From Bilabrum cf. latius (Eukaryota), in the NCBI GenBank assembly GCA_965178125.1, contig OZ237755.1, positions 496,001-560,000 on the forward strand: 64,000 nucleotides of DNA, in the 5' to 3' direction. Of this stretch, positions 1-64,000 are shown piece after piece (within the stretch, counting starts at the first letter, position 1; each line of letters starts with the position of its first letter). The position numbers and the translations under genes were made by a program. The notes under the pieces were generated by a model. That model was not told the DNA's origin and searched no databases. It saw only the letters and a list, made by a program, of their open reading frames with translations.

Positions 1-1865
1 CGCAGCGTCTTCTTCAAATCACTTTCCAGCGCGTTCAGCCGTCTCGAGTACTCGAGCGCCTTTGACTGCCGCACCGCTCGAATGGCCTCATCCATGTCGC
101 CCACGACGGCGGCTCGCAGCGTTTCCAGTTGATTTCGGCCCTCCTCCTCCGCGTCCCTCTCGTGTTCTTCCAGCACTCGCTGTCTGGTACTATCGAGTGA
201 GCTTCGTAGAGCTTCCATGGCACGCGCCGTCTCAGCGTCGATGCGAGCGCTTGCTGCTGCTTTGGCTGCTTCCAGCCGCTCCTGACCCCTCTGCCTCTCT
301 GCCTCCAGTTCTGCCTCCCTATCTCTGGACATTCTAACCTCTAGTGCCTCAATTTCAGCTGCCTACGCCCGCTTGAGCGCCTCCTGCAGCTCCCTGAGGT
401 CGTCGTCCTTCCGCCGAGTGAGCTCTGCCTCGGCCTCCTTCACAGCGTCCTGGTGCTGCGCCTCCAAGGCAGCGCGAAGCTCCACCGCAGCAGCCTCCCG
501 CTCCTACGTCAGGCGATCCGCGATGTCCTTGCGCCTCCCCGCGAGCCGGTCCTCGCTCTGCCTCATGGCCTCGGCTGCCAGCGACTCAGCTGCCTGGGTG
601 TGTTCCTGCCTCGCCCGGTCCTCCAGCTCCGATTCCGCCCTGGCGGCAGCCGCCTCCAGCGCCCTCCTCGCGTCCGCCATGCGCTGCTCATGCTCCTGCC
701 TCAGCTGTTCCCTGAGCGAACCCAGCCTCTCGTCGTTCTCTCTCTCGCATGCAGTCCTCAAGTCCCTCACGGCCTCCTCGAACCTGAGCTCGGCCTCTTC
801 CCGCAGACGTGCCTCCGCCCTCTGGCCCCTGCTGCGGTGGCTGTCCTCTATGCGCTACAGTGCAGTGTCTTTGTCTTCCACCAGCTGCTGCGCCACTGCA
901 TCCAGCCTCGCCTCCCTTTGCTTCTCCCCCTCGATCGCCACCATGGTCAGCAGCCGCTCCGACTGCTCCCGCGCCTGTTCCCTGAGGGCCTCTTCCCCTG
1001 CCAGCGCGTCCTGCTCCTGTCGCTGGAGCAGCTGTTCGGTCCATTCGCCCGCCTGCCTTGCGGCGTCCGCGGCTGCTTTGGCCATGCGGTCGACAGCCTG
1101 CGCCGTGGGCCCGCGAGCGGCTGCGTCCATTCGCTCCGCGACCTCTGTGCCCAGCAGGGTCTCGATCCTGCGCCGCAGGGCGGTTAGTTGTTCCCTGGAT
1201 TGATCTGCCAGGACATGAGCCCTGTGGCTGGCATCGTTCTGCACTTGTTCCCTGAAGGCATCGAGGACGGCTGCGTGTCCTGTCGGCATCACGGCGAGCT
1301 GGCCCGCACCCGCAGCACTTGCTCCGACAGAGCCACTGGTTCCGCCAGGATGCAACAAGCTCCCGTTTCGTACGCTCTACAGCGTCCGTTCAAAGTCCTG
1401 TTCCGCTTCTCGCACCGCCTTGGGTCTCGTATGGTACGCGTCAGGGTCACGCGTATGCCTCGTCGGCGATGCCTTCGTGCGACCAGATGACATTGTTCGG
1501 CGGCTGCGCGAAGGTGCAGATGACTGTGATGAAACAACTTTTGTAACCTGCTACGGGTTCCTATCGAGGCCCTTTGCCTTTCCAGGCGGGATCCACGCAG
1601 GAGGCGGTTGAGGGTTTCTCCTCTGCTCGGGACCCGAAGCTGATGATCGGGTTCGTCCATTTTGCGATGCAGAGCCAATACTTGCAACTGTTTCGTGATT
1701 TGATCCAGCACCGTGCGGGAGGGGCAGCGTCGGAGCTGGAGGCATCGGTCGGGCTGGTGAGATGGGACCAATTCCGGACAACCCGGTAGCCTCCGCAGCG
1801 CTATCCCTGTGATCGGCTGTCAGGCGCGCAAGCTACCGCAGAAAGCTTGAATCCTGAAATTCCAT
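1..1865 (-). CDS. Coiled-coil protein of unknown function (3'-truncated by window edge)
   Basis: ATG at 1865 after an A-rich leader. One frame stays open to base 1 if TAGs at 1833, 1551, 1377, 855, 504 and 363 are read as sense. This joins ORFs 1551..1781, 855..1358 and 504..770. Sequence is E/A/R/Q/L-rich and helical. Confidence 0.7.
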
Positions 1866-2062
1866 CTTTTGTTTATCAGATACTCCCCAGCGCCTTTGAG
1901 GTTAGTGAAGGTGCCCAACGTCTACTTGCAGAATCGTGCAATGCATAGTAATATGTTAGTAGCGTGCAGATTCAAATGCAGTATTGATTTCGCGAGGGAA
2001 CCCCGGAGCGATGTGACATTCCAACTGTTTTACAGCTTTTCTCCACTCTCAAACTCTCAAAC

Positions 2063-3831
2063 ATGGCAGCAATTTCTGAACCGGTGGCCGCTGAGGCCCC
2101 CGCCGCTGGCGCCGAGGGCGCAGCGGCACCCACGTCTGCTGGTGAGACGCTCCTTCAGTTGCTTCGCGATTGGCCGCACGCGCTCGTGCGGCTTACTGCG
2201 GCCTCATCGTCGGCCTTCTGATGAGATGAGGCAGCATTATATGTATATAGCTGTAAATTTTCTATGTGGCCCTTAAGAGCACAATCAAGTCTGAGGGATC
2301 CGCTAGGACGCGGCCGGAACGGGCATTCCAAGACCATACGAACCTCGTCTTGCAGCGCTCTTTCATCGCTACGCAGGTCCCAAGACCTTCGAGACCAACT
2401 ACCACACCATCATCGAGAAGTTCGACAAGATGGACCTGAAGCCTGAGCTTCTCCGTGGCATTTTCGGTGAGCCAAGCATTGTACTCGATTTGAACTGGGT
2501 GGCCATCGGCTTCCAATCGTGGTTTAGCACCCGGATGGCTGGGAAACCAATGGAATATAGTCGCGTCTTTGCTCCAATTGGATGCTGCTGGCGAAAGGTG
2601 TGCGCATGCTGGCTTTCATGTGTCCCGGCGTGATCCTGCAGTCCGGAGAATGATGGTTCTCCGCCTCCTGTTGCACTGCCCCAGGCGGCCTGTCACACGC
2701 AACCACCGCCTTACACACGCCCACGATTCGATTTCATTCAACGCAGGGTACGGTTTCGACCGCCCGTCGGCCATCCAGGAGCGCGCGATCAAGCCCATCA
2801 CCGAGGGGCGCGACGTGATCGCCCAGGCCCAGTCCGGTACCGGAAAGACGGGTGCCTTCTCCATCGGCGTGCTGCAGAACATCGACACCGAGGGTCCCGC
2901 CCGCGTGCAGGCCCTGGTGCTGGCACCCACCCGCGAGCTGGCCCAGCAGATCCAGTCCGTGATGCAGTCCCTGTCCGAGTACATGGGCGCCAAGATCCAC
3001 GTGTGCGTGGGCGGCACCGATGTCAGGGAGGACCTGGCCACGCTCGCCGACGGCGTGCACGTGGTGGTGGGCACCCCCGGTCGCGTGTACGACATGATCT
3101 CGCGCGGGGCCATCGACCCCTCGGGGCTCAAGATGTTCGTGCTCGACGAGGCCGACGAGATGCTCGACTTCGGGTTCAAGGACCAGATCTACGAGATCTT
3201 CCAGAAGGGGCTCCCCAAGGACATGCAGGTGGCCGTCTTCTCCGCCACTCTGCCCAACGAGGCCCTGGAGCTGACCCACAAGTTCATGGGTTCCGACCCC
3301 GCCATCATCCTGGTCAAGAAAGAGGACCTCACCCTGGACGGTATCTCCCAGTTCTACATCGCCCTCGAGCAGGAGGACGCCAAGCTGGACACTCTGTGCG
3401 ACCTGTACGAGCGCCTCAAGATCACCAAGGCCATCATCTACTGCAACCTCAGGCGCAAGGTGGACTGGCTCACCGCCGAGATGCAGGCCCGCGACTTCAC
3501 CGTGTCCTCCACCCACGGAGAGATGGAGATGAAGGACCGAAAGGCCATCCTCAAGGAGTTCAGGCAGGGCGCCTCCCGCGTCCTCATCACCACGGACCTG
3601 CTGGCCCGCGGTATCGATGTGCAGCAGGTGTCGCTGGTCATCAACTACGACATGCCCGCCAAGCGCGAGTCGTACATCCACCGTATCGGTCGGTCGGGCC
3701 GTTACGGCCGCAAGGGTGTGGCCATCAACTTCGTGACCACGGAGGACCTCCCGTACATCAAGGACATCGAGACGTTCTACCACACCTCCATCGAGGAGCT
3801 GCCCGGTGAGCTCGACACCCTGCTGCCCTGA
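2063..3831 (+). CDS. eIF4A: Eukaryotic initiation factor 4A, DEAD-box RNA helicase (3 exons: 2063-2141, 2377-2466, 2747-3831; ~417 aa)
   Basis: Motifs [47 protein letters not shown] and [13 protein letters not shown] introns restore the frame. Ends in TGA, contains no TAG, strong GC3 bias. Confidence 0.95.
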
Positions 3832-4488
3832 GTGCAGTGCATTGTAGCGATGGATCGTGGGGCGTGTCTCTTGGAGGGGGCGTGCGCCCGGGCGGCTGCT
3901 TGTCGGCTGTGCGGGATGGTTTTCAAGAAACTAGGCGGTTTTGGAGCGCTTGGTTCCGTGGCGGCACATGGGTGCCGCACGGGACATGCGTGCCGCCTGG
4001 GGTCTGCGCGGGGGAAGGGACAAGGTCTCGGCGCGCGGATCGCATGAGGGGAAGGAAACACGAATGGCAAGACGAACGAAACGACAAGACGACGACATGA
4101 TGAGAAGCAAAGGCGACTCGATAGAGGCACTCGGCTGCGCAAACCGCAGCGCGCGTGTCACTTGCAGCGACTTTGGTTTGCTGCGCTGAGGCGACAAGAC
4201 TTCTTTACTGGCGAATGGCAGGGGTAGACGGTTGGACGCGCGTATGCGCGGTGTGTGTTGATGGTTGCTTGCTGCGTGGGTGGCTCAGGAACTGTGTGAG
4301 ATTGATTGCTCGCCCTATGGCACTTGCGCCTGGGGCGGGAGCGAATACTAGGCATCTCCCAAAAAAATAACCAAACACAAGTAGTTTTCAAAATTGCACA
4401 CCAGCAGGTCAGTGAGCCGAAAAAATCCAACACCCAAGAAACCAGCTGCACCTACACACATACACAGCACATGATGCTGCAGGCGGGC

Positions 4489-5718
4489 TCAAACACTTCC
4501 TCCCGCCGATCCACTCAGTGTGGTGGCGACTAGCCGAGCAAGGGCCGCTGGCAGCACGCCGTCGATAGCCCCTGCATCGACACCCGGCTCGTCGTCCCTT
4601 GCCAAATCGGACCCCTAGGAGGAAGAGCCTCTCGCTTGGCCTGCTCGCACCGCTGCACGCGTTGAAGGCCCAGATGCCGACGACCCGTCACCCGGGCCCG
4701 CGCCCCAGCTGCCAGCACCACTCGTACTACTACTAGAATCACCCATTTTGGCGGCACTTGCAGGCGGGCCCAGCACGCACTCAAGTAGCTGGCTGCGAGG
4801 CCACTGCGACACGGGGGGGCACAGCGGCTCCGCATTCCTCTCAGCGGAGCAACTGCTACGCGGTCGAACTGTCGCTTCACCAGCCCCCTTTCTTAGATCT
4901 GCGGAACCGTGATGACTGGCAGTGGCCTAGTATCTCAGTCGGAGCTCAGCATCGATCAGTGTCCATGCCGCCTCCAGGTCGCCCCTGCGGGCCACAGAGC
5001 TCTTTGGCGCTTCCCACGGCTTCGGGGCGCTAGAGTAGTGCAGTATGTCGATGGGATGGCATGAATTCCAGTAGCCGGGCTGCTTTGCGTGCGTGAGCCA
5101 ATGAAGCGTTCGCTACGCATTCGCTCGGAATGGCAACCTTGTGTGGGCAGGGCCCCGGAACCAGTGGGGGAAGAGGAACTAGTTCAAGAATCCCGTGTCC
5201 CCACCATCGTATCCCGAACATGAAACAGTGCGAGCGGTCCGCAACATTCGGCGGTACACACGGACATCTGGTTGCACCAGCATTACCCCGCCATTGAATC
5301 GGTCCGGGATTAAGCAGTCCGGAGAGGCAGCACAAGTCCCACCGTACGTGTCAAAATATGATTCTAGAGGGCGCAACACTACCGCATCCGCATCAATGTA
5401 GAAGATCTTTTCAAACTGTACCAGCTGCCAAACAGCAAGCTTGGCGAAGCACTCTGGAAACCTTTGCTCGTGGCTTTGGCGACCAAGCGAGGAGAACATC
5501 TAGTGCGCACTAAGAACTGGGTGCATAACACATTGCAACCGTTGTAACTTGGAGGCCTCATAGGCCATAGAGCGGACAAAACTTGGATCCAGGCTGGCTG
5601 GCGTGTACAGTACCATGCATACGCTTCTGCGAGATGTGCAGCAATCAAGAGACCGGAGCATGCAAAAAAGACCAGGCATAAAGTCTCTGGATGTTATGAG
5701 AGTTGCATAAGCTGTCAT
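4489..5718 (-). CDS. Glycosyltransferase family 8 (glycogenin-like), ~409 aa
   Basis: Motifs MTAYATLITS, FAKL, YIDADA (DxD), FNGGVML, YDGGDTGFLN and ILHYSSAPKPW lie in one frame through TAGs at 5500, 5179, 5113, 4927 and 4615. TGA at 4489-4491. Confidence 0.8.
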
Positions 5719-5882
5719 TCTCTCGTGCACAGCAATCAAAAAGATCCCGATTGGTGATGTCGGTGGTTCCGGTTTTGCACAGCAGCGACAGCCTGAGGCC
5801 CTGCGCGGGGCCGCAAGTTACAGCAAAGTTATTCTGCTTCACATAAAGACACACACTTAGGAACAAGACACGCAAAATATCC

Positions 5883-8800
5883 TTACGAACCCCCGCACAG
5901 TGACAGGCACGAGCCGTCGCCGTTTCCGCCCGATGATCCCTCGCCCGGCCCCCCTTGCTTGGTGAGGACCTGCCCCAGCTGCATCTCAGTGAGCATCGCA
6001 CGCACGCCGCCCTTCATGGCAGGCAGAGAATCCCGCACACCGGGTGGTACCACGCTGATGGACTGCCAAGCAGAGGACAGCGGCTTGGAGAGCTCACCGA
6101 ACGAGTTCCAGTACTGCACGATCACGAAGACCAGCGAGGCGGACAAAAGCACGGCGATTACTGCCTCGTTCAGCTGCACCTGCTCCTCCACTCGCCCTCG
6201 CACAATGTCAGCAAAGCGGATGCCGATCCGTCTGAAGGAGTCCCTGATGTGGGGCTGCATGGCGGTTGCCAGGATAGACAGCCGGAACGCGATCTCAGGC
6301 TGGAACCAGTACGGAGCCAGGTCGGCGTCAAAGTCTGACCCAGCCTGCGGCCCGTTGATGATGTAAGACCGAAACTCCCTGATTACCTCATTCAGCGCTG
6401 TCTGCGCGCCGTTCACAAGGACACCGCCCCCTGCAGCCCTGCACTGGTCGTAGATGTCACTCCCTGCACACGCATCGTCGAGCAGCATCTCAGTCGCTTT
6501 ATCGTCCGAAACGGTGTCTAGCTCCAGTGTGAGGCCGGTTGATTCGTCGTAGTAGGTTCCACCCGACACGAGCCTCCGCAGGCCCACCTGCAGCCTCGCT
6601 TCGATCGTATCGAGCTGCGCGCGAAAGCCCGGCCGAGTTACGTTGGTGCTCGCGTAGGCGAGGTCCTGCAGAACCTGGGTGTACCGCACAGAGTCCATCG
6701 ACAGCCGTTCCGCCAGCACGAGGCGCTCATTGGTGCTCGTCACACCGGAGAACAGGACTGCAGTGGATACCACGAGGAAGACCACCCAGCAGAAAGACAC
6801 CATCACAGGGATCATGAACCGCCCAGTCGTCCACAGAGTGAAGCTCCAGTCGTCCGTGAAGGTGCGCATGCTGTTGACAGTCCTGCTCGACCTGCGCTTC
6901 AACATCTTGGCACGTCTTCGTTCCTTGGCGCGCGCCTTCTGGATCTCTTCATAGGATGCTGGGGCAGAGGTTCCGGTCCCACTGGAGGTAGCAAGCACCA
7001 ACTCTTCGTCTGCCGCACCAGACGGACGCCTCGGGCCGACGGATCGGCGACTAGCCTGTCGGTTCGCTTGGATCACATTGCGCCACTTTTCTTCCTCCTC
7101 TTCGAGAGCCTTGGCTGCTGCCGCCGCGCTTGCAGACGTAGTGCCAAGCAGCCGTTTCAAGCCACCGCTCTGCCTTGCAGACAAGTTCCCCCCGTCGCCC
7201 TGCGGGTCGTACTCGTTCACGGCATCATTATTCAGCAGCAACCCATCGTCGAGGCCAAACCCGGGGTTATCCTCCTCGAACTCGCCCTCATTCTCGATCC
7301 CCTCAAACTTCTGAACCAGCTGCTGCAGCTTGGTCGAGTGGCCCGTCTTGAGCTGCTTGGCAATCTTGACGGGCATGTACATGAGCAGGCCAAGAACACG
7401 CATGGTCTTATTTCGGAGCTCTGCCAAGGACCGAGAGAACAGAATGGCAGCCACTGCCAGCACCACGACAAAGGCAGTCAGACCCGCGATCCCCACCACG
7501 AGCTGCCACAGAGAGAACACGTCGGCGACATCGCGGGAGCGAAGCGACAGGCTGTGGTTGAGGCCCCCGAGGTAAGAATTTGCATTTGCCAGCATGAAGG
7601 AGTAGTCGGGCACCCCGAAGGAGAGATTGGCGGCGTGCGTCTGGTGCGCGATCCGCAGAAGAACCGCAGACATGAACTCGCCCATCTCGTACAGGCTCAC
7701 GTTGTACGGCTGCAGGGGCGCCCTGTCGTTGCTTATAGACACGAGCTGCAGCGTGCGTTCGAACAGCTCGTCCCTGGCTCTGTTCCTCCCGAGGCTGTTA
7801 CCTTCAGTGATAAGCACCTGGTGCTAGTCCCGGTGGAACTGCGCCGCCTCTTGCATCACACTGTACGTGAAAATCATGAAGGGCTCCGTCGTTGGGTCTG
7901 AAACAAACCGCGGATCGTAGAAGCCCCCGACGGTCCTGTAGTCCACCAAGAAGGACTGATAGCTGACGGCTTGCTCAGCGTTCACGTAAAGGAATGTGCT
8001 AACGTCCTGCAGGCCGTCTCCAACCGTGCGCTGCAGCGCAATCCCTGCGATTCCAAGCGCGAGAATGATCGTGATGATCCAGATGAACGCCAGCCGGATC
8101 CGGGACACCTCCTGGTTGGCAGCGCTGCCGCGATTCTGCACGACCTTGCTCAGTTGCTGCGCCATCCAGCTCTTAGATGAGGTCACGCTGCTTCGTCCGT
8201 CCGCATCTTGCTTCCGCCTGCCGTCAAATCGAACGGGGGGACGGCCTTTGGGAATGCCAGAGAGCTGTGTCCCAGAATCCGCCGAATCAACGCCTGACGG
8301 TGGGGCATTGATCAGCCCAAGAGCGTTCGTGCTGCTGAACGGGTTGATGAGCGACGACTCCGATACGTTCGAGTTGCCCGCGATGCTCCCGTCTGAATCC
8401 GAACCGCCTGCTGTAGCCGGCGTGCCGCCGATTCCGCCGGATGGAGCCTAGGGTAAAGGTAGCATGCCACCCGTCGACCTGTTCCCTCCCGTGCCACGTG
8501 CCGGCGACACATCGCTGGAGTCGCTATCATTCTTGATTTCGCCGCCAGCGGCCGCAGCGAGTTGCAGACCACCATTATCTGTCGTGACCTCGCGGCCGAC
8601 CTTCTTCGGAGGGCTGCCGTGGACATCTGATGCTCCACCCTTGGAGTCGTCCGTGGCATTACTATCGGATTCTGTCGGTGACTCCTCTCCGGCCTCGGTC
8701 TCGATCTCCTCCGCGGCTCCAAAGGTGACTGAGCCCCGGCGAGCGGCCTTCTTCTTGCCCTAGCGCCTCTTACCCCCTTTCCGCATGGCAGATTTAGGGC

Positions 8801-11800
8801 CGTCGATGTTGCCTCGCTTGAGGCCGGACCACGCACCGCCGAGGAACCCCAGGTCCTCGTCATCCTCATCGTCAACCCTGCTCACCTGCTCCGTGCGGGT
8901 GTCCTCCAGCCCCACCTCTGCAAGGGCGGCCTGCCCGATGGATGAATTGAGCAGAGTGCGCCGCGCGGCTGCCTTCATCACGTTTCGCTCGTCCTGGTTC
9001 GGCGCCCTCCACCGGAGCATGAAGCAGCGCCTGCCCACAAGCCCTGACACGTCCTGCACGGAAGCCAGCAAAAGACTCGATCCGTCGCTCGTGTTCTCCA
9101 GGGGAACAAGACCGGTGTCTTTCTGTCGCAGAAGGGGCCGCGGAAGGAGCCTCTGCGGCAGCTGGGGGATCTCTGGTCCACCCAGGGACCGAGACGAGTC
9201 GAGCCTGTGGGCGTCTTGACCGCTGGCAAGTAGCGGTGGAACAGCAGCATTCCTCGAAGACAACCCTATGCCTTTCCCACCGGTAGTTTGCGGCACTGCA
9301 GTGCCCTGTAGCATTCGTCTCGTGGATGTCGACAGATGCTGCAGCTGCGCCACGAAGTTTGACCTGCTCCCATGCCGCATCAGGGCTGGCTGCCTCGTGC
9401 CATCACCAGCTGGCCCTCCCCGCGGAGTACCTCCGGGCGCTATGTGTTCGTCCCCTCCGTCCTCTGCCAGCCTGCGCCTGATTTCTTCTGCCAGTACCTT
9501 GTCCAGCTCAGCGATGCGCTCTCGCCTCTACTCAGGGGAGAGGTCTGCGATCCGCACTCGCTCTCGGGGCTGGGCAGAGGCCGCAACGCCGAGTGCTGGG
9601 GTGGTGACGTCCTCGCTTGAGGGTCCCCGCATGTTACCAGACGAGCCGTCGACCTCAGGCGTCAGAAGAGCCAGCATCACGGCGGGGTTCCACAGCGCGG
9701 ACTCGTTGCCGCCGTCCATGTCCACCGTGGGAAAGTACCGAGTCAACGGGATCGTGTCCCTGCTGACCACCTCGCCGTCCACGCCCATCATGATCATGGA
9801 ACGAGCGGTGGCCGACAGCACACGGTAGTTGTGCTCTGCCCCCGCGAAGAAAACCACGTTCTCGTCGCAACGAAGCTAATCAATGGTCACCGCCAGCCTC
9901 GCAGAAGAAGTCTCGAGCTCGGGCGTTGCCTCCATGAGGGACAGCACCACGGGGATGGCCGCGCCGTTCGTGTGCTGCACAAAGGTCACCTCGGTCATGT
10001 TGAGGTGGTTGGACCACCCGTTGTTCTGCAGCTCTGAGATTCGCTGCCGGTATACCCCTCGTACAGGCTCGGGCAGCATCGTGGTGAAGGGGCTGCCGAC
10101 CAGCTGGCTGGTATTTGCGTGACCCAGCAGCCTGCATGCCGCGGGTGACGCGCTGAGAACCTCTCCGATGCTGCCGTCCTTGGCAGACAGGGTCAGGCCG
10201 GCAGCGGTGTCGTCCAGCTGGTCCACGTGCGGGGCGTGCTGGCCCAGCACGACGTGCCTGACGGCGCGCGCCCGCTGCTTGGCGTTCCTCTCGTCGATCC
10301 GATCGGCTCGGTTGAAGAGCTCCATGGCAGCGATCGCGTCGTTGCGGAGGTCCATGAGAAACTCAGCGTATACCCTGCACACCATCGCGCCGCTGCTAAG
10401 GCTCATCATGTGCTTGTACAGGCCTTCCGTGCGGCCGAGGGTGCTCTCGATGTCTTGGCCCACAGCGACCACCTTGCTCAGGGTAGGGGTGGTCCGTGCC
10501 AACTGCTCCCACAGAGCCAGGATGCTCCGCATGGCCGCGATCTTGCTCTCCTGCGCCTTCTTGGCGAGCTGCTCAAACACGACCCGGTCGAGGGCCGACA
10601 TCTTGCTGTGGTCCACGTCCTCTCGGATGGCGTAGGTCCGCTGGTAGGCGAACGCCTGGAGGTCGACGCCTGGAGAGCGCAGCCTCGCGGTACTAAGGCA
10701 CTGCGCCTCGGCGAAAGACGTGTCCAGATAAAAACCGCGGTAGAACTCACCTGCCAGCAGGTGCGCTAGCGGCTCAGAGTTGTACTGCTGCCGCATGTGC
10801 CTGTAGGCCTGTTCGGCGGCGTAAAGCAGCTGCTCGTCCATCCGCTTTGCGGCAGATTCGTAGCGAACGTTTAGCAGCCTTCGGCCGTAGTACGCGGCTG
10901 CGTCGATTGCGATGCTTGCCATGCCAACCGATGCGCCGACCTCCGTATCGGTCCGGCCACGCAGGCTCGGGCTCGCCCCGTTGGCGTGCTCGGCCCCGAG
11001 CATCTGCTCGAGCGTTTGACCGGCCGGGTCGGGCCCGCCAATAGCAGCGGCGGCGATCCCGTCCATGGTCCCCGTGATGGCTCCCTCAAAGGAGAGGAGA
11101 GCGCTCGCGGAGATGCTCCCGTGTGTGATGCTTCCTCTGGCTTCCACCCTTCGGCTGTACCTCTGCATGCGGTGCCTCGCCCAGACGTCCACCTGCACGA
11201 GATCGGAGCACTCAGAGAGCGGCTGGCTCGACACGAAGTACTCTCGCATGTGAGTGGTCAGCGCGCCGACACAGAAGGCCAGTGGGAGTCCCAGCAAAAG
11301 GGTCAGTGACATGTCACCCGTATCGAAGTAAGTTGTCAAGCAGAGCACGGAAGCTGCCCACGCGAACGCCATGCTTCCCCCACCGACGAGCGCGTTCATG
11401 TGGCTGTGGGTCAACGGCAGGTTCCGCACCACAAAATAAAATTGACTGACTCCGAACAGAAGCAGAATCACTGGGAGCGCCTGCGAGTCACGAAGCTAGT
11501 CAATCAAGAGCGTAAATGCCAGCACGAGAAGTGTCTTCGCCCCTAGCGCCAGCATCGTTGCCCTCCCGTGCGGCATCGCGTCCCACGACGTACTAGCAGG
11601 CGCTCGGTCGACTGATGTCCCGGCAATAAAAACGTTCAATACAATGAACAGGACGAACAGTACGCCAATGAAGATTCGAAGGATGACGGACGCGGCGCTG
11701 TTGCACTCGAGTCCAGATGAGGTCCATCCTCCCGTGTCGGCGGCATCTACGGCCCCACGACACGTCAGACTCGTGGCTAGAGTTATTGAAACTGGCAAAA

Positions 11801-51974: not shown

Positions 51975-54320
51975 ATGGACTCCAGGCCGCCACCTCCAAC
52001 TTCAAAGTCTTCGAAGAAGAAAAAGAGAAAATCGGGAAAGAAGAAATTGTCAATAGGCTCAGACAGCCCCGCTGATCAGGAAGCACAGCCTAGCAACCCG
52101 CGCCCGCCAACCAAGCAGCCGGGCGATGCAACTGCAGGGAGCAGAACGGCTCATCCACCTGCCACCAACGGTGCAGCTGTGAAAAAGAAATCCAGCAGGT
52201 CCAAAAGGAAGCGCAAGTCGAGTACGACCGCTAGGCCACCCCGCCCGCCTGGCAGACAGACTGCGCAAGCTGCCACTCCGGTAGAGTCCCAAGGCAGCAT
52301 CAACGGTAGCGATTCTGAGTTCAGCGAGGTTGAAGCGTACGCTGAATCTAGTGATGTTGACGGTACATAGCAATGGGACGGGCCGAGCGCGAAGCCACCC
52401 CCGCGACCACCAACAACGACTAGCAAAGCGCCCAAGACGAAGCGAAAGGGAGCCAAATCAAAGGCGAGCAAGGGCAAGCAAGGGAAGAAACGAAGCAAGA
52501 GAAAGCTAGCAGAGCATAAAACAGGCGATGACAGCGATAGCGATGGCAAAGATGGCTCCGCACCAGTTGGCGATGCTGAAAAAGCAAACGGCAGAAGCGC
52601 GTCGTTTGTCGATTCCGATGACACGGACCACGAGTCTAGAGACGGAGCCAACGGGTCCGCGGAGGGAAAAGGAGTAGATGCAGGCGTGAACAATGAAGAG
52701 TTTTCAAAGAAGCAGGAAGCACAGCGGTAGGCCGCTGCAGCACAGGAGGCGGAGCTCGCCAGGCTGCCGCCCCATCGTCGCGCGGCCTTCGAGCGAGCGA
52801 GAGAAAGAGAACGAATGGATGCAGCCAGCGCAAGCGCCCGCCCTGCCCATGGCATTCCGCGGCAGCACGCAGTCGAGTCATTCTCTGGCATGGGCCCCCG
52901 CTCCCAAGCACCCCTATCCCTTCCTGCTCGAGGCGGAAGCTACCGAGCCAGCGGTCGGGAACAGCCTCGGGGGATGCCAGTGGGTTTGCCAGAGCACCGA
53001 CTGCCTCATGCCGGCGCGTCATCTCGCGGAGTGGTGCCTCGCGTCGGCTAGTATCGCGCTGGGTATGCCGGTCATGGTGATATTTCCAGGCAGCCGGGCG
53101 GCAAGCTGCCAATTGCAAGCAAGCAAGGGGCTGTGGATCCCACGAATCCGGAGGCAGTAGGCATGTTCGGCGGACACAATCGGATGTATGCGGGGGGTAC
53201 CCCGTCCTCCACTCCTGCTGCTCCGTCTTAGTTCGGCACGAGGCCAGGAGGACCTGCGCCGCTGCCGCCGCACCTCCGAGCGCGAGCCGGATAGAGCAGG
53301 ATCCCGTACTCTGGGGCGGCCGCTGCAGGTCCTGGTGCTGGCAATGGCAGCCGCATGGACGGTGCATCAGCTGCTCGTGCGCACCAGACGGCTGACCCTC
53401 ACTATTACCCTGACACGGAAGCGGCTGAGTTTCCGCAGGGACGGGTCATGGGGAACAGGGGCGCGGTCGATCCTGTGTTCCCTGACCGGCAGGTGCCTTG
53501 GACACCCCCGCCGCCCAAGGACCTGATCGAGGCTCAGGACTGCTGCTGCTGCCGGTGCGTGTGCCTGGACGACGACCCGGAGCCGAATTAGGGATGCTGC
53601 GGGCCGGCCGCGACCAATGATGTGCCCCTGTGCCAGTGCCCTTTGCTCAAGCCGGGGCAGGCGTCAAGGCACCTGATTGATCAGTACTTGCCTGGTGTCA
53701 GCGAGAGCTTGGACAAAGACGGATGCTGCTGCGCGCAGCAGGATTGCACCTCGGTGCAGGATTGCTTGTGCTGTCCTGTTGCGTTCAGCTGCAGGATTTG
53801 CGGGTATGGGTGTTTCTGTCCTTGCCAAGACGAGTCGGATCGTCTGCTTGGCTGCGGGCAGGCCTGGCTGTTGGTCCTGGCGGCCGGGCTGATCCTGACA
53901 CTGTTCCTTGCAGACTCTTGGCAGCTACTCGTCGGCCTGCTCACCCCACTGATCTTCTGCATCGCTTGCGTTGTTCCCTGCGTGCAGCTGCCGTACTGCC
54001 TCGGCTTGGAGGAGCCGGAGCATCAGGCGGGCGGGGTGGTGGCCGCCTGCCTGTCCCTGACCATTCCCCTGACCGTGGGACTGGTGCTGCTGGGGGCTGA
54101 CGTGAGGGATGGCCAGGAGGAGGGGGGATCGGTGGGCAGCGGCCCCGGGGCTATCGACATGTCGACGGATAGGGAGTTTGGGGAGGCTTGGGTTTGGACG
54201 ATCGTCGCTCTTTGCTTGCTTTGGGCGTGCCTGATTCCGTGCCTGCGTTCGAGGGCCTTTGCGAGCGCCGCTCATTTCTGCCGCGTGTCCGTGTGCGGGC
54301 ACTGGGGGGGTGAAGGGTGA
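51975..54320 (+). CDS. Hypothetical protein (~781 aa): basic/low-complexity N-terminus, Cys-rich region, ~4 C-terminal TM helices
   Basis: One frame through TAGs at 52368, 52728, 53049, 53229 and 53589. CC/CxC clusters followed by hydrophobic helices. Ends in TGA. Confidence 0.6.
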
Positions 54321-54525: not shown

Positions 54526-55724
54526 ATGCAGCATGCCCGTGATGCTGCGAGACGTGTCTTGGACTAGTTAATGGGCGAGAACAGGGACGGAGATATGGAC
54601 GACGTGGAAGTGAAAGTGAGAGAATCGGGTTTGGCTGCCACAAGCTGCGTCTTGGGACCAAAATCTGCCGCCACTTTGAGTACTTCCCTGACTTGAATCC
54701 GCAGGACTGGAGAGATGAGCGAGTATGTAAGCCTAACTTGATTGACGGCTGCGTGCACGATCTATTCAGCAAAACAACGTACGACCAGGGGCCATGCCCT
54801 AAGCTGTACTGTGGCGAGCGAGCAGATAAGTGGAAGCGCATTTTCCTGGAGCAAAAGCAAGCCGGTAAGGTTAGTGCTCGCGAGCTGGGCATGATGGAAG
54901 ACGAAGCAGAGGGGCAGATGATCCGATTCGTACGAAACGAAGTTGATCGTCGAATTGAGCGAGCCATGACGAGGACTGAGGCCGCCCAGAGCGCTTTGGA
55001 AGTACTAGATGTCGAAGCCGTGCCAGAGATTGCTGCCATTTCCAAGCAAATCGATGAGAAAGAAGCAGAGGCCGAGAAGGCAGGCGAGGAGGGCGAAGTC
55101 GACAAGTCGCGAGCCCTGCTCGACGAGGTTGCGCACCTCCGTCGGGAGAAAGCGTCGGCAGTGTCGGCAAACTTGGCGCAGCAGCGAGCTGCTGTTGCAT
55201 CTGGCCCGCTTGCGCGCGCTAATCCGCGATCGAACGAGCCCTTCTTGCGTGTGTGCAAGGCTTGCGGGTCCCTTCTCTCGATCAAGGATGCAGACGACCG
55301 GCTGGCCGAGCACTTCGAAGGCAAGGCCCACACGAATGTCGTGAAGGTTAAGACGAAGCTAGAGCAGATGAGAGAAAGCCGCAGGTTGGGGCACGGTGGC
55401 GGCGCGTGGAACCAGCAGCGCCAAGGATTCGGAGCCGGGGGCGGAAGCATGCGCGCGAGCCTGATCGGGGGTACGGACGAGCGGCGAGGGGGTGGGGGGG
55501 GAGGGTATCGCGGCCGCCCCTTGCACGAGGACGACCGGGGGCGCATGGGTCCCGGGCCATCCTCTGGAGCTGGAAGCAGCAGCAGTGCACCGGCCCCAGC
55601 ACACGGCGCTGCTGCCAGCGGTGTGCTGCCTGGGGGTGTGCCACCAGCCGTGCCACCCGCCCCGCCGGCAGCACCTCCAGCTCCAGGCCCTCCCCCGGCC
55701 GTGCCGGGGCCGCCACCGAGCTAA
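54526..55724 (+). CDS. LUC7: LUC7-like U1 snRNP splicing factor (exons 54526-54615, 54705-55724; ~369 aa)
   Basis: N-terminal DAARRVLD[TAG]LMGENRD. First zinc-finger region VCKPNLIDGCVHDLF..T..DQGPCPK. Second finger LRVCKACGSLLSIKDADDRLAEHFEGKAH. Ends in TAA. Confidence 0.88.
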
Positions 55725-55856: not shown

Positions 55857-58656
55857 TCACGCGCGGCTGCCTCGCTGTTGGCCCATCGCACTCGGTGTCC
55901 TGATCCGATCGTGTCCCAAGCCTCCCGTGCCTGGCACGGCAACTTCCACGGGCCTGAACCCAGACAGCCTAGACTCACCACGCTGCGTGCTTGACCCCCT
56001 TGATCCTGCACCTGCATGCAGTGGACCCGCACCTGCACCGGCGCGCCCGCGGGAGGCAGGCATGCGTTCTGCCGTGCGTCTGCCCCCGAAATCGACCTCC
56101 ACGCCATCAGCGGGAGCTGCAAGCGTGCCGCTTGAACCTGCTCCCAGGCTGCTGCCACTGCGTCCATACCCCACAGCAGAATCCCTGCCCCGCTAGTCGT
56201 CACCAAGCTCGGTGCCAGAGCCGGTAGCGGGCCAGTATCCCGCACCGATCGCCTGAACATCACCATCACCACCGGGGCCTGCGCTGCTGTCACGCCTGCC
56301 CACAATGGTAGAATCACGGCTGCCCCTCGCCCCCCGGTCTGCAGCACCCAGGTCGATCTAACCGACGTCTCCAAGCTCATCTTCACGCAATCGATCGCTC
56401 TAGCGGATCTCTTCTTCTTCTTCCTCTCGAAGCTCTTCTGGGGATGGGCCAGAGTACGCGTAGCACGACACGATCGTGAAGTCTCTCCCGCACGCCACTG
56501 CCCTCGGTCTACCGCGGCCCACGCCATCCACGAGCCGATCGAACGCATCGACCCTCTGCGGATGTGCGACAAATTCATCCGATACGTCCGCGCCCAAGCA
56601 GCCGTACTTGTTGCTACCCCACGTGTACAGCTCGCTCTCATTCGTCAGTATCGCGTTGTGCGTCGGCCCGCACACCAGCTCCCTCGCTGCAACGCCCAAC
56701 TCCACCAGGCCTGGCATTTCGAGAGGGTAGGGCGATGCGTGCGTTGCATCACCAAGACCCAGCTGGCCCTGCATTCCCGTGCCCCAGGCGTGCACGTATC
56801 CGCAATTCACGAAAGGGGGCGTCTCGACGATACACGCAGAGTGCCAGGTGCCGCAACCGACCTGCAGCACGCGCTCCCCCTCCAGCGCCGCGATTGGCGT
56901 GGGCAACGGCCTGTTCTTATTGTCGCCGTGCCCCAGTTTGCCCCCGCTGCCGGACCCCCAAGAAAACACCGGCAAGCTGCACCCGTCGGCCAGCACGAGG
57001 CAGTGGCTCGCTCCGCAGCTCACCTGCAGCACCCTCAGCACCTGCGGCGGCACGCTGAGCGGCACAGGAGCACGGTCTGGAAGCACGTCTCCGTCAAATT
57101 GCGGGACTGGATTGGGTGTAGGGAAGTATCGCCTGTACTGCAGGGGGACTCCTTTTCGCTCCGTGGCTCCGATGCCGAGCCTGCCTTCCATCGCATTGCC
57201 CCAGCTGAGGATCTTGCCACTAGCAGTGGTGACGAGAGTGTGCGAGTGTCCCGCGACGGCTTCAATGATGGGCTCGCCCTGAAGATTTTCCATCAGCTCT
57301 GGCTCTATGACCTCATCAAACGTACCAAGCCCGCACTGCCCATACCGATTCTGTCCCCAAGTGAACGTGTCACCACCTTCCGATACAGCCACTACATGCC
57401 CAGCCCCAGCGGACACCTAAACGATGGCTTCTCCCCTTAAGCGGTCTATCTGGACGGGATAAAGATGCTTGTTTCGCTCAGACCGCGATTTTTGGGTCTG
57501 GTGCACGGCAGCAGCACTTGCTCGGTCCAAGGTGCTCCCGGCAGCATTCCACTTCGCTGCGGCGCTCGGCCCTTCTCTGTCAGCGCCGTTAGATTGTATC
57601 ATGCTGCTGCTACTGCCTGTGATTCGTGGATCTGCCACGCCACCAGTTGGGACGCCACGAATGCCAAGCTGATCGACAACCCCGGAGCGGACTGGTCCGT
57701 CCGGGTGCCTGAATGGATAAAGCTCGTTGCTGCGATCGCTTCGGTCTCCCGATCGCTGGCTATTCGATATTGCTCTTGAGTTGCTTGGATGGGCCGATCC
57801 CCGGAGCAAAACGCCCTTGATGGACCCATCCCCTGCTGGAAGCATCAGTCGCCTTCCAGCTGCCAGTGGCTGCTCCTTCGCCTCGGGTCTGAGAGCCGCT
57901 CCAGCTTGCCGCCGCCGATCGCCTGCTCGCATTTGAGTGTAACCCAAGGGAGCCTGACCACCGCCTCCCCACGAAAAGACTTCTTGCTGGTCGGACACAG
58001 CGACGCAGAAATCCCCAGACTGCGTCAAGAGAAACAGCCGTGAACTGTGTTTCTAGGCGTATGCTGGATAAACCCACCATTGAGCGCGCTGCTATTCTGT
58101 AGTTTGTGCCCTACTCACGGCAGAAATCATATCAATGTTCTTTCCTTTTAAGCCTGGGATGCATGCGAACGACTCTCTCGGTAAGCTGTCCCCAAGTCCG
58201 ACTGCGAACGAAAAGGGTAACATGGAGCATTTTCAGGCTAGTCAGTCTAATGGTCTGAATTGTGAGTACGTTGATGTGCAGCTCCTCACGCTACCCGGTG
58301 TGATTTACCCCAACTGCATACGTGCTGCCGGCCTGCTCGAGCAACGTGCCGGCTTGTTGCTTCGCGACACGGGCAGGCTCCACGCCAAGCTAGTGTTCAA
58401 ACTTTGCCTAAATCCAGTCTAGTAGTCTTTCTTGCAACTCAAGCTTGGTACCATCGTGAGGCAGACCCCTCCTTTTCAGATTTTCGGCAAGGCTGCGGCG
58501 ATTCAGCTCCCTCAGACTCGACTTGCCGGTCAGCAAGTCGTCATCTTTGAGGATCCCCGTCGGTTTAGTGTACCACGGCTTCTCTTCTGCTCGTCGCAGC
58601 TGCCTGTACAGTTCCATGCATTCAGCGTGACCAGGAATTGTGCGAGCACGCCGCAT
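55857..58656 (-). CDS. RCC1-repeat protein with an N-terminal SAP-like motif (introns 58202-58289, 58020-58118; 5' end approximate)
   Basis: SAP-like LAENLKRRGLPHDGTKLELQERL. Multiple RCC1 repeats (WGQNRYGQCG, QVSCGASH, GQLGLG). TAGs at 58408, 58390, 58291, 57417, 56400 and 56193. TGA at 55857. Confidence 0.85.
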
Positions 58657-59597: not shown

Positions 59598-59889
59598 CTT
59601 TCCTTCCTGTACCAAGCAAATGATCTATTGAAGCACCAAGGATCGCACTGCACTTCAGGACAAGTTAAATCGGATTCAACACGCAACATTAAAGCGCCGC
59701 CGACCGAAACGGCACTGCCATAGATCTAGCTCTGTGAGCCTGTTTTTTCGATGTGATTCCCTCGATACGTTCACGTGACAACCCTGCCACGCAAGTCGGC
59801 CCCATGGATCTAGCACAGCTGCTGCCAGACCACGAACTTTCCGGAGCCAGCCCTGCACCGCCCAACAGCTTGGTCGTGCATAGTAGATC

Positions 59890-62817
59890 ATGATAGTCCT
59901 GGTAGACGGAACACAAGCTATTTCGTTCGAGGAGCGAGCAAAGAAAACTCGTGATGGTTCGAAGTAGCGTTCAAAAAACGATTTTCCTTGGTTTGCAATA
60001 GAACTGGCACCAAAAGGAATCATGAGCCTATCGGTGGCCCCGATTCCGCCACCGTAGGGTTCTAGTTTGTAGCGATCGCGATCCCTTGCGTACGCCTCGC
60101 GGTATGGAGTTTCCGCCCCGCCTGCAGAGGCACCGGAAGGTGCAACTAGGGATAGCAACGACGTGTCCGGCCTGCCTGGCCTCCAATCTGCTCGCCGCAA
60201 AGCGGAATTTCTGTCGCTACCTGATAAGCCGTACGGAATCGATCAGCGTCCGCCTGGGGAGGGGGTACGAAACAGGTGGCGAGATTCGAGCGGCCAGGCA
60301 TATGAGCAAGACCCCTTCCCGAAACGCGTACCGCATCAATCTGCTTCCATTGTCGTAAGCAGTTTTGCTAGACGCACGGAGTAGCTCTTGGCTGTTGAGC
60401 CGAGGTTCGGCTGGCTGATGTACCTTGTTCCGTTTGTAGCTGCGGGCGCGCATCCGAGCGCGTCTGCCTGCGTTTCGTGCCACGAGATGCTTGTCCAGGC
60501 CGAGCATCTTGCAAAGCTGTATGGAGACTATGCTGGCGCACTGGCAATGAAGGAACTTTACTCGAGTGCGCCCTGGCCTCGCCTCGCTCGCGCAAGGAAG
60601 CACGCCGCGGAGGCAGTGGCGAACGCTGAGCGGTTGGCTCGCATTGCTGCTCGAGCGGCAGCTGCCAGAAAAGGCCGACCGATCTCAGAGAAAGAGGCAG
60701 ACGCAGTGAATGCAGGTGCTCTTGTTCCAGCCGAGGCACTCGCGAGGGCCGACCGTCTGGGGTGGAGCAGGGCATTCGGAGTTGACGCGAGTGTGCTGGG
60801 GGCTCCCTCCCCGCGGCTGCCGCTCACAGCAGGCGCGAAAGAGGTACAGGAAGAGGCCAGGAACGACTGCGCCAGGGTTGTGCTCCTGCCAGAAAGAGAA
60901 AAGATCCAGGGGATGGTGCGAGCAATGCGCCGAGCACTTGCTCAGCACTGGGTGGCCCGGGAGCAGGCTGCTCGCACTGCGCTGGCCGAGCAGGCGCGTG
61001 CGATCGCTCGAGCCAAGGCCCAGGCAAAAGCAGAGGCGAAGGCGGATGGAAAAGGGAAGAAGAAAGGCCGAGGCAGGGGCAGGAAGAAGCAGACCGCCGT
61101 ACCCGGCGCGGGGCAGCCGGGGCCAGTCCTCGCCAGCGGGACAGGAATGGGCCCAGATGGCCTACCGGACGGGTCGTCCCTGGTTGTGGGTGGGCTGCCC
61201 TTGGACCAGGTCTCATCGGTGTCTGCCGAGCAGTTTAGAATGTCGGCTGCAGACAGGGCTAGCCTGGAACCGGTGCGCGACACGACCGCGGAGGAGCGGG
61301 AATCGGGCCGGCAGCTCCTCATCGTAGACGGGACGGGTGCTCTGGATGCTGCGCTGCTGGACTGGATGCAGAAAGTACCCCCAGTCCCGGTGCCGCCATC
61401 AGACGGTGCGCTGGAGGGGTGCCCGATCGTGGCTGGGTTCGACTGGCTGCGGCAGGCGCATGAAAAGTGCAGCGAGCTGCTCTGGAGGGCGTGCAACCTC
61501 GGTGCTGCCTCATTGCACGCCAGCCTTGAGGCGGCTGGGCTGCTTCCATCCTAGCTGCAGCTGCAGCTGCAGATGCAGGACAGGCAGGGCGAGACACCCA
61601 GTAAATTAGCTGGTGCGCCGCCTCTGGCCTCTGAATCATCATCATCGAGTGCGGCATCCAAGGCGCACAACAGTAAGAAGGCTCGCCTTCCGGTCGTCGG
61701 TGCCGCCGCATTCAAGGAAGGTCTCGGTGCGCAGACTGGAGTGTTGGACGCTCTCCAATCTGAGATTAATACTGCCCGCAGTCTGCTTGTTGCTCGGGGC
61801 GAGCTGCACGCGGTTCCGCATTCCTACTTTGGAGTGCCCAGAGGTGCAGCAGAGCTGCTTGCGTACGCTGCTGGGCAGTCCACTGATGGGAAGAAGGGAA
61901 GGCCGAGTGAGTTTGGCGGGACTGACGAGAGCGAGGTGGTCGCGCCCCGGCTGCCTGTCGATGCTGACGACGATCTGCTCGAGGCGAGCGCGGCAGGGCC
62001 CGAGGACGCAGATAGGAGCTTGCTGTGTAGCACATCTGCTTCATCGCAAGCTTCTACGTCGGCTCTAGCTATAGGTTCCGCGGGTACATTTGGGGATGCT
62101 GGTGGGCTCGGAATCTCCCCCGCCGAGGCTCGTGAGCTGCTCGCGAGCGGCGCGCTGCTTTCGGGCGCCAGTGCAGTCGGATCAAAGCGGGGCAGGGAGT
62201 CCGGGCCACTTGCAGGAGCAACGGAGGCTGAGCTTGCTGCAATCAGAGGCGTGCTCGTCAATCTTGCTGCCATGGATGCTTCAGGACTCGGAAAGTTAAA
62301 GTTGCCTGTTGTCGTGCGGGGAAAGCAACTGGCTGAGGCCTGTCGCAGGTTGGGCGTGGATGAAGCGACGATTGCCCGCCTGCAGAACGCTTTTGTGCAT
62401 GATAGTGAGCATGATAGCGCAGATGCAAGGCGGCCCGCCAGCAAGCGTGCAAGGAGCGATGCCGATGCCGCGGCTGCTGGGGCCAGTATTGCAGGCGGGT
62501 CTCCCGACGGCCTGGCAGCCATTCAGGCCATCACTTCTACGGCGGCTGCCATGTACGGTGATCACTTCTGCGTGACACGGCGGCCGGCACAGCCAGAAGC
62601 ACAGGCGTCATCCAGTTCTGGTGCTGGGGCGGGCACGGCAGCCGCGAGTCGACCGACAAGGAAGGCAGCAAAGAGCAGCCGTAGGGCGGGTTCGCAGCCC
62701 AAACCGGTCACTGCAGAGGAGGCACGGGAGGCAGGCACCCGGGCGTTGGCTGCAGGAGGGGAGAGCCTCCTTGCGGCAGCTGCGGAGTTAGCTGGCACTC
62801 GAAGCGTGTTCGGCTGA
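59890..62817 (+). CDS. Hypothetical Ala-rich protein (start uncertain)
   Basis: ORFs 60163..60384, 60388..61554 and 61573..62817 share one frame, linked by TAGs (60382, 61552 and several upstream). Ends in TGA. Confidence 0.6.
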
Positions 62818-63035
62818 TGGATCCGGAGTTTGGATTCCAGATCTGGATCTGGGGCGGACTGCATCGGCACTGCGATCTAAATTCTTGATCTGAGGGTGAA
62901 CTTTACACCTCAAGTCAGTCATTCGCTCTGCTGGCTGTGACAGGCTGCACCAGCAAGACCATGCCAGTAGTAGCACTCTAACCATCTCAAACGCGTCTCG
63001 AACGAGGACTGGAGTGATCTCAGTTCTAAATTCCA

Positions 63036-64000
63036 TCACTCCTCATCCATGGCTGCCTGGGCCTCGTCCAGCTTGGCCTTGTACGCAGCCCACTGCTGGT
63101 GCGTCTCCTCGATGACCTCCTCCGCGAAGGCCCTGTTCTGGTACTCTTCCCTGAGGGCAAACTGGTTGATCTGGTCAGGGCTCTTGTACAGCCTCATCCA
63201 CTCCCTGAACGATTCCGAGGCACCGCTCGCTACGTCGATCACGTCATCGATGTCCTCCATCAATGGGGCCATGGGGTCCTCCTCGGCAATCCCGATGACC
63301 TTCCAGTCCGTCTCCCCGTCGTCGATCATGGCCAGAACCCCCAGAGGCTTATACCTCACGATCGCGCCCATGGGCCACTGCCGCGTGCCAATATCGATCT
63401 GCGAGTTGAACGTGAAAATTGCATGGAACGTGTTTACGTGTGTGCGTATTGGAATTAGAGTTGAACCGCGAAACAAGGAGTTAGCTAGACTTCGTGTCTC
63501 GAGTCTCTCACCACGTCAATCGGGTCACCGTCGCCCTTGTGCTTGGTGCGATGGTCCTCCACATCAGGATCCTCGTAGGTCTGCGGAAGGGCTCCATAAT
63601 TAAACATCATCTGCGACGAAGGCGAACAGACAGGGGGTTCGGCAAAGGCGGAGCGTGCTTCTGTCTGCACACGGCAAGATAGGATAGCTACCAACATTCG
63701 ACAACCCAGTCAGACCATCGGGACGCGGAACGCAGACATAGGCACGGCCGCCGATGCAAGTCTCACGTCTCCCCAGTGGTAATCCCTCAGCTTGCCCTTC
63801 TTGATGTCCTGCTTGATGGGGTTGAAGTCCGTCTTGGTGTCGATCTCCATCTTGGCGCGCGTCCACTTGGGGATCTCGCAGATCATGTTGAAGGTACCGT
63901 CCTCGTTTTTTAACGGGATATCGTGCCAAGGGGAGATCCGGTCTTCTGGCTCGCCCGGCCGCGTGCTCTTGAGGTACCCGACCGTGAACTCCTTGCTGGG
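63036..64000 (-). CDS. Soluble inorganic pyrophosphatase, family I (5'-truncated; introns 63611-63766, 63399-63511)
   Basis: Motifs [53 protein letters not shown] and IDDGETDWK. Ends in TGA. Confidence 0.93.

Follow-up and report, generated by a model that had tools for sequence, protein, structure and literature searches.

A stretch of 64,000 nucleotides (nt) from contig OZ237755.1 (positions 496,001–560,000, assembly GCA_965178125.1, Bilabrum cf. latius), referred to here as the window, raises the question of which genetic code its genes are written in. Under the standard code, the window is a mosaic of abutting open frames; those at 22034–22936, 22937–24289 and 24290–24826, for example, share one frame and follow each other at adjacent codons. 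Once such frames are merged across TAG, recognisable eukaryotic proteins appear by Pfam and PDB matches, namely two kinases, a starch synthase, a GAF-domain cyclic-nucleotide phosphodiesterase (GAF-PDE), an RCC1-repeat protein, a GT8 glycosyltransferase, LUC7, eIF4A, the propionyl-CoA carboxylase beta chain (PCCB), a methyltransferase and a TmcB-like protein. The window, with a GC content of 61% overall (56–65% along the whole 64 kb), belongs to the nuclear genome of a GC-rich microbial eukaryote with spliceosomal GT..AG introns and polyadenylated mRNAs. We consider it highly probable that UAG has been reassigned from stop to glutamine (Gln) in this organism and that UAA and UGA are its only terminators.

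The distribution of the three stop triplets is the first line of evidence. Across 16 open-frame spans on both strands (18,068 codons without terminal stops), the coding frame contains 94 TAG and no internal TAA or TGA, while the +1 and +2 frames of the same DNA contain 308 and 377 TGA, 38 and 68 TAA and 121 and 117 TAG, respectively. If the coding frame were like the other two, approximately 395 TGA and TAA triplets would be expected, and none was observed. TAG is present in 13 of the 16 spans, and one in exon 1 of LUC7 (54565–54567) adds a 14th gene. These counts bear out the original prediction, made from the sequence alone, of about 90 in-frame TAGs in 13 genes on both strands, free of frameshifts and of in-frame TAA or TGA in coding exons. 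Reading TAG as sense extends the longest frames from 816 amino acids (aa) to 2889, 2607, 2369, 2015 and 1552 aa (also 1019 and 1012 aa), whereas the maximum stays at 816 aa when TAA is read as sense and is 1017 aa when TGA is.

Pfam domains run across TAGs in the two kinases, GT8, GAF-PDE, RCC1 and the starch synthase. As had been claimed, TAGs interrupt essential motifs, lying between the kinase HRD and DFG motifs, within the GT8, GAF and PDE domains and in the N-terminal exon of LUC7; we found this within the RCC1 domain as well. Among the codons TAG, CAG and CAA, TAG accounts for 94 of 845 (11%), alongside 587 CAG and 164 CAA. The main exon of eIF4A uses 18 CAG and neither CAA nor TAG, and the TAG-rich genes include GT8 (5 TAG vs 11 CAG and CAA) and the PINK1-like frame (16 vs 38).

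The TAGs are also clustered: there are 14 cases of a TAG with another no more than two codons away, where 2 would be expected. Tandem arrangements (TAG-TAG or TAG-TAG-TAG) occur at five places (within 17401–20898, and at 24824–24829, 49563–49571, 59881–59886 and 62968–62973); the TAG-TAG-TAG run forms residues 352–354 of the PINK1-like frame, and the tandem pair at 20893–20898 was found in mature mRNA.

Four public runs (X1, X5, X6 and X20) were compared with positions 2400–22399 of the window, and the RNA evidence is limited to that stretch. In X1 the stretch is unbroken and identical to the window, and this run may be the origin of the window's DNA. X5 and X6 were produced by two independent studies, separate from X1, and their contigs are clearly RNA. 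Seven joints in RNA contigs lie over GT..AG intervals (or CT..AC, for the other strand) of 96–280 nt (2465>2746, 11887>12038, 15267>15373, 15551>15707, 16194>16291, 16374>16571 and 16623>16758), and a poly(A) run at 4367, behind eIF4A, ends one RNA contig. A 6,566-nt RNA contig represents the TmcB-like gene (5848–11887 joined to 12038–12563) and a 5,036-nt RNA contig lies over the kinase (16758–21408), each with no differences to the DNA. The stretch has 21 in-frame TAGs, of which 20 are kept in RNA in X5 and 14 in X6, with no base change at any that was covered; by gene, these are four of the five in GT8, all six in the TmcB-like gene, all nine in the kinase in both runs and the single PCCB TAG in both runs. 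X20, a marine plankton metatranscriptome, matched the stretch only in parts, and its listed pieces miss every in-frame TAG.

These data bear on the possibility that the TAGs are untranslated, being products of pseudogenes, assembly or sequencing errors, RNA editing or missed introns. Direct support for this is absent, and the extent of the RNA leaves the exon structure of some genes on DNA alone, among them the PINK1-like one that contains the TAG-TAG-TAG run. The RNA contigs of two independent studies, however, match the DNA colinearly along 6.0 kb and 4.7 kb, with TAGs kept and true introns removed, and the proteins of relatives (see below) that are 87–98% identical break at the same TAG positions five times. 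An error would moreover have to take the form of a TAG-only defect that left no TGA, TAA or frameshift in the 18,068 codons. Because spliced RNA contigs keep the TAGs unchanged, editing, splicing-out, pseudogenes and assembly error are excluded for the genes of 2400–22399, in keeping with the earlier view that pseudogenisation was implausible, and we give untranslated TAGs virtually no chance as an explanation.

The second line of evidence comes from the gene ends. One of the 16 frames leaves the window, and the other 15 end in TGA (10) or TAA (5), never in TAG. The original prediction had counted 12 TGA and 4 TAA among 16 ends; its statement that only TGA and TAA occur holds, while its counts are replaced by ours owing to a difference in gene calling that leaves the substance unchanged. 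Several of the ends are anchored by homology or by an mRNA 3′ end. The last residue of PCCB (584) aligns to the last residue of human PCCB (539/539) and is followed by TGA, and in eIF4A, whose alignment to human eIF4A1 reaches residue 384 of the 388 there, a TGA stands five residues further on. In the methyltransferase, the Pfam profile match (58–217 of 218) ends at residue 299 of 305, with a TAA six residues on. The TmcB-like mRNA contig stops 35 nt past its TAA (ending at 5848), and a relative's fragment, P0252, ends at the TAA position of the 2,889-aa protein. Within the window, the retention of UAA and UGA as terminators, as first proposed, is supported.

These ends, together with the internal counts, also address a code in which TAG and TAA both encode Gln (UAR, i.e. 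UAA and UAG, as Gln; NCBI table 6) and TAA is rare through high GC. UAR = Gln is by far the commonest eukaryotic stop reassignment (PMC5304391, PMC11687900), and CAA is the minor Gln codon here, at 164 vs 587 CAG. At that CAA:CAG ratio, however, approximately 26 internal TAAs would be expected for 94 TAGs, and there is none. Five frames end in TAA, three of which are anchored, by the end of a Pfam profile, of an mRNA contig and of a relative's protein. We regard a UAR = Gln code as a very remote prospect.

A third possibility is that TAG is dual, serving as sense within genes and as a stop at some ends, in a context-dependent code as in Condylostoma or Blastocrithidia. Such codes are on record (PMC4967479, PMC12153298), and with 15 gene ends examined, the genes are too few to speak against occasional termination at UAG. 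Nevertheless, TAG is found at none of the 15 ends, an outcome whose probability would be 0.013 were one stop in four a TAG. TAGs occur 22 and 25 codons from the stop of the PINK1-like frame, and a WW-like domain carries on across both. In codes of the Condylostoma or Blastocrithidia type, TAA and TGA double as sense, whereas here they are never internal. A dual role for TAG is thus unlikely.

The amino acid inserted at UAG was approached through close relatives. With the GAF-PDE protein and the 2,889-aa protein as queries, database searches brought up 15 protein fragments of relatives (P0151–P0158 and P0247–P0253, respectively), 44–99% identical, from other assemblies and metagenomes, where they had been called under the standard code. 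In the forward direction, 11 of the 24 TAGs of the two genes are covered by these fragments, with Gln at six of these sites, Lys at two, and Glu, Tyr and Ser at one each. Given a share of Gln in the background of 0.0415, six or more Gln among 11 would arise by chance with a probability of 2e-6. Gln stands opposite residues 956 and 1579 of the PDE protein and 627, 1538, 1704 and 2222 of the large protein, while the other sites are Lys at 655 and at PDE 1991 (in relatives at 69% and 44% identity), Glu at 2732, Tyr at 344 and Ser at 97. All five kinds of residue are a single base away from TAG, as would be expected if point changes had occurred recently; codons for Trp and Leu are equally close, and neither residue was seen at any of the 11 sites.

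The reverse comparison took the window codon directly after the end of each relative's fragment (16 fragments, 13 of them at ≥87% identity). Of those 13, one ends at a window TAA stop, five at a TAG (GT8 213; PDE 1682; large protein 209, 794 and 1922), seven at a Gln codon (CAG 6, CAA 1) and none elsewhere; the chance of seven Gln codons out of seven is 2e-10 at a Gln-codon share of 4.15%. The three distant fragments (44–81%) end opposite Ala, Arg and Pro, and these ends may be contig ends or misaligned tails. The pattern shows TAG and CAG or CAA apparently swapping freely among close relatives, like synonymous codons, the stop in the relatives being putatively TAG. Because their frames break at window TAG or Gln codons, the comparison also shows that the relatives putatively share the TAG-as-sense code.

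Attempts to reach the relatives' DNA in metagenomes gave little. A scan with the PDE protein produced 67 pattern matches, none of which was confirmed, and a scan with the 90%-identical fragment P0157 produced, among the matches listed, four distant GAF loci (L001–L004, 33–48% identity), P0157's own contig not being among them. Separately, two fragments of 315 and 94 aa (P0155 and P0158) represent the PDE catalytic domain of a more distant relative, from a metagenome, split in two and aligned to residues 1706–2047 and 2053–2146 of the GAF-PDE protein. The longest contig recorded for each is 2,190 nt, probably the same contig, and the break lies opposite Arg 2048 of the window protein, which suggests that in-frame stops may extend well past the closest relatives.

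Conserved columns in distant homologues point the same way. One is at GT8 residue 235 (LPFRANA-TAG-RTLHW), where 145 homologues have Gln 81 times, Thr 22, Leu 19, Lys once and Glu never, and where the nearest homologue (51% identity) has Gln. The GAF column at TAG 956 holds Gln and Met 67 times each among 143 homologues. Log-odds from profile hidden Markov models, built from homologues with the close relatives excluded and summed over four columns, were 4.76 bits for Gln, 2.86 for Lys, 2.62 for Thr, 1.05 for Glu, 0.81 for Ser, −3.79 for Leu and −4.03 for Trp. TAG 686 of the PINK1-like frame is opposite a Gln of human PINK1 in the PDB alignment, and at PDE TAG 1991, the PDB entry that matches best has Gln and PDE9 has Asp. 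The TAG in LUC7 exon 1 falls within the motif LD-TAG-LMG, where human and yeast LUC7 presumably have Gln; a PDB search with the 26-residue peptide of this exon matched no LUC7 chain. With regard to context, Gln is enriched 1.66-fold within two residues of TAG (1.52-fold around Gln itself) and Lys is depleted (0.69-fold), and some TAGs lie inside Gln runs (e.g. QKQQ-TAG-QQ). Gln is thus the residue preferred at TAG both among relatives and in conserved columns, as had been proposed.

Several points weigh against the assignment to Gln. All of the evidence comes from 64 kb and 15 gene ends. Five of the 11 residues in the forward comparison are not Gln, and TAG to CAG is a transition from an abundant codon; by a hand estimate, the forward tally alone separates Gln from Lys weakly. 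That TAG is the codon breaking the relatives' frames is deduced from their proteins and not read in DNA. Most TAGs of conserved domains fall in variable columns, with D, K, A and M in the RCC1 columns, R and A in PCCB and mostly Ala at GT8 213, and TAGs 437 and 695 of the PINK1-like frame are opposite L and A. In the same frame, TAG 997 falls on the second tryptophan of the WW-like domain in five of five PDB alignments. These alignments are weak (E value ~0.008), and the Pfam WW score is 18.3 bits vs a cut-off of 26.9. If TAG encodes Gln, the WW domain of the PINK1-like protein lacks its ligand-binding Trp; TGG to TAG is a single transition, and a Trp-to-Gln substitution in a degenerating WW domain would suffice as an account. 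A second TAG of the WW region (residue 994) lies three codons upstream of 997 (window 51480–51500).

The same observations feed the alternative that TAG is sense for an amino acid other than Gln, for which Lys and Glu alone have any support. Lys and Glu make up two and one of the 11 residues of the forward comparison, Lys scores highest in the PDE column (1.72 bits), a paralogous repeat in the 2,889-aa protein has Glu in one copy and TAG in the other, and Trp is opposite TAG at the WW site. Against this, the relatives' frames break on Gln codons in seven of seven cases and never on Lys, Glu or Trp codons; the GT8 column all but lacks Lys and Glu; Lys is depleted near TAG although it clusters with itself 2.19-fold; and the summed log-odds of Lys, Glu and Trp all lie below that of Gln. 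The reverse tally is the strongest evidence on the residue and, taken with the conserved columns, separates Gln from Lys. We hold a residue other than Gln to be very unlikely, and reassignment of UAG to Gln remains the reading that we adopt.

As to mechanism, UAG is transcribed, kept in mature mRNA and in frame, and it is apparently exchangeable with CAG and CAA. By analogy with other UAG-only codes, from which we infer the decoding machinery, UAG would be read by a glutamine tRNA carrying the anticodon CUA, which probably arose by mutation in a copy of tRNA-Gln(CUG). Such a tRNA would miss UAA through a C:A mismatch at the wobble position (PMC5304391), and because of this mismatch UAA could stay a stop. 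The release factor eRF1 would have lost or weakened its recognition of UAG. Alternatively, near-cognate reading by tRNA-Gln(CUG) together with a changed eRF1 might do without a dedicated tRNA. ARAGORN found no tRNA genes in the 64-kb window and there is no eRF1 gene among the genes of the window, two points that weigh against the reassignment; an Rfam scan of the window gave no match at the gathering thresholds.

Table 1. Genes, frames and transcript features of the 64-kb window
Feature	Position	Strand	Details
Coiled-coil protein frame, runs off the window	3–1901	−	6 in-frame TAG; without Pfam family
eIF4A main exon	2746–3831	+	0 TAG; GC at third codon positions (GC3) 0.94; TGA stop; Pfam DEAD and Helicase_C
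eIF4A transcript	intron 2466–2745 removed; poly(A) from 4367	+	RNA contigs
Glycogenin-like GT8 glycosyltransferase	4489–5817	−	5 in-frame TAG; TGA stop; Pfam PF01501
TmcB-like membrane protein, main exon	5883–11887	−	6 in-frame TAG; TAA stop 5883–5885; Pfam TPR_TmcB
TmcB-like gene, upstream part	intron 11888–12037 spliced; upstream exon 12038–12563	−	RNA contig
N-terminal protein methyltransferase	12641–13558	+	0 TAG; TAA stop; Pfam Methyltransf_PK
Propionyl-CoA carboxylase beta chain (PCCB)	13831–15551	−	One TAG at 15415–15417; TGA stop; introns 15268–15372 and 15552–15706 removed (RNA joints)
Protein kinase, long insert between HRD and DFG	16758–21255	+	9 in-frame TAG including one TAG-TAG pair; TGA stop; Pfam Pkinase
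Starch or glycogen synthase, 2,607 aa	22034–29857	+	GT5, GT1 and C-terminal AMPK1_CBM; 6 in-frame TAG; TGA stop
Low-complexity protein, 2,889 aa, PFU-like C-terminal repeats	30024–38693	+	15 in-frame TAG; TAA stop; Pfam PFU
GAF and cyclic-nucleotide phosphodiesterase, 2,369 aa	39041–46150	+	9 in-frame TAG; TGA stop; Pfam GAF and PDEase_I
PINK1-like kinase frame, weak C-terminal WW-like domain	48510–51569	+	16 in-frame TAG; TGA stop; DNA-level frame only
Cysteine-rich membrane protein frame	51942–54320	+	6 in-frame TAG; TGA stop; without Pfam family
LUC7 splicing factor	54526–55724	+	Exon 1 ~54526–54603 with TAG 54565–54567; main exon frame 54543–55724, TAA end
RCC1-repeat protein	55857–58232	−	6 in-frame TAG, one within a blade; TGA stop; Pfam RCC1 and WD40_RLD
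Frame of 1,012 aa without known family	59779–62817	+	7 in-frame TAG; TGA stop

Some of the genes in Table 1 have further features. The starch or glycogen synthase carries an N-terminal extension of approximately 1,850 residues without a Pfam family, and its nearest cluster in the protein atlas has the same three domains and no taxa on record. The TmcB-like protein gave no match at E ≤ 0.001 among 7,995 candidates when compared with proteins of similar length. For the PINK1-like kinase, the top PDB match is human PINK1 (E value 3e-11); DWG replaces DFG, and the N-terminal stretch looks ankyrin-like by eye. Positions 26–232 of the 246 in the Pfam LUC7 profile map to the main exon frame of LUC7. 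At the transcript level, a single RNA contig spans both the methyltransferase and the convergent PCCB in each of two runs (12600–15551), and the 3′ ends of these genes are at most ~270 nt apart and may overlap. The mRNA of the kinase has three short introns (96, 196 and 134 nt) upstream of the main exon (16194–16758), in what is apparently a 5′ leader.

The codon table itself is already known from Iotanema and some ciliates. UAG-only codes on record are those of the rhizarian exLh (Leu) and Iotanema spirale (Gln) (PMC5304391), Scotinosphaera (Ser) (PMC8271138), and Protocruzia tuzeti and two phyllopharyngean lineages (Gln), with UAG = Leu newly reported in ciliates (McGowan et al. 2024, PMC11687900). 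The precedents named in the original prediction, Iotanema, one rhizarian and some ciliates, agree with PMC5304391 and PMC11687900. As here, exLh and Scotinosphaera have reassigned UAG while UAA and UGA still terminate; the amino acid at UAG is a different one. An exLh-type code was rejected, Leu being found at 0 of 11 sites in relatives and scoring −3.79 bits; Ser, the residue of Scotinosphaera, was found at 1 of 11 sites and scored 0.81 bits.

The closest match in code is Iotanema spirale (Fornicata; Panek et al. 2017, PMC5304391), which has the same table, with UAG as Gln and UAA and UGA as stops; its code was deduced likewise from in-frame UAG at Gln positions of orthologues, in transcriptome data. 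Fornicata are, however, an anaerobic metamonad lineage (PMC9161772), whereas the window has a GC content of 61% and encodes propionyl-CoA carboxylase and a PINK1-like kinase, both with mitochondrial counterparts in human. Because of these three features, the window organism is unlikely to be a fornicate.

The ciliates with UAG = Gln only likewise share the table and are further cases of UAG parting from UAA (PMC11687900). The window differs from ciliates in its GC content, in carrying at least 15 genes within 64 kb of a contig of more than 69 kb, and in its introns of 96–280 nt. Most macronuclear genomes sequenced from ciliates are rich in AT, and the chromosomes of phyllopharyngeans are gene-sized. 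These features would speak against a ciliate origin more weakly than the evidence speaks against a fornicate one.

In the UAR = Gln codes of many ciliates, hexamitid diplomonads, oxymonads, some ulvophytes and Amoeboaphelidium protococcarum, TAG is also Gln, presumably read by a tRNA-Gln with a mutated anticodon; TAA is sense there too, whereas it is a stop in the window organism. Amoeboaphelidium was ruled out as the source lineage by its GC content of ~40% (Table 1 of PMC10608142) vs 61%. The same change, TAG to Gln, is described as 'genetic code 15' in crAss-like and Lak phages (PMC9523058); those systems are bacteriophages, whereas the window is nuclear, with spliceosomal introns and poly(A) tails. 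No published account of a GC-rich organism other than a ciliate in which UAG alone is read as Gln came to light in a search that had most subscription journals and supplements outside its reach.

The window has no rRNA to place the organism, and two protein-atlas searches, with the C-terminus of the starch synthase and with eIF4A, gave no usable taxon. The best PDB matches are weakly informative on phylogeny: they are the human proteins for PCCB, PINK1 and eIF4A1 and, for the phosphodiesterase, entry 5vyd, which is probably from a choanoflagellate. The eIF4A contigs of the marine run X20 (2815–4261) differ from the window, with coding-exon differences spaced in multiples of three, a pattern that indicates a closely related marine organism. 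Relatives at ~97%, 90%, 70% and lower protein identity, from other public runs and metagenomes, have frame breaks at the same positions or at Gln positions. We lean slightly towards the possibility, already raised in the original prediction, that the UAG-only Gln code arose independently outside ciliates and fornicates, here in a lineage of aerobic, GC-rich and probably marine protists, as a trait common to the whole clade.

A practical consequence is that standard-code gene callers cut the proteins of this organism at each TAG, as is seen in database fragments that end at TAG or Gln positions; hence, annotations, orthology tables and metagenomic gene catalogues of the clade stay fragmented unless the right code is applied. 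Changes to the nuclear code are rare, and the separation of UAG from UAA is rarer still, with Iotanema, a rhizarian, Scotinosphaera and a few ciliates as cases given in PMC5304391 and PMC11687900. A further such lineage would be an independent data point on the joint evolution of a CUA-anticodon tRNA and a changed eRF1. It would likewise bear on whether GC pressure, under which TAA is rare and CAG common, favours capture of UAG only, and on the rate at which CAG and TAG replace each other after becoming synonymous. If the origin is indeed independent, this clade, with a long-contig assembly and public RNA, would be a tractable system in which to study the escape of UAG from its coupling to UAA.

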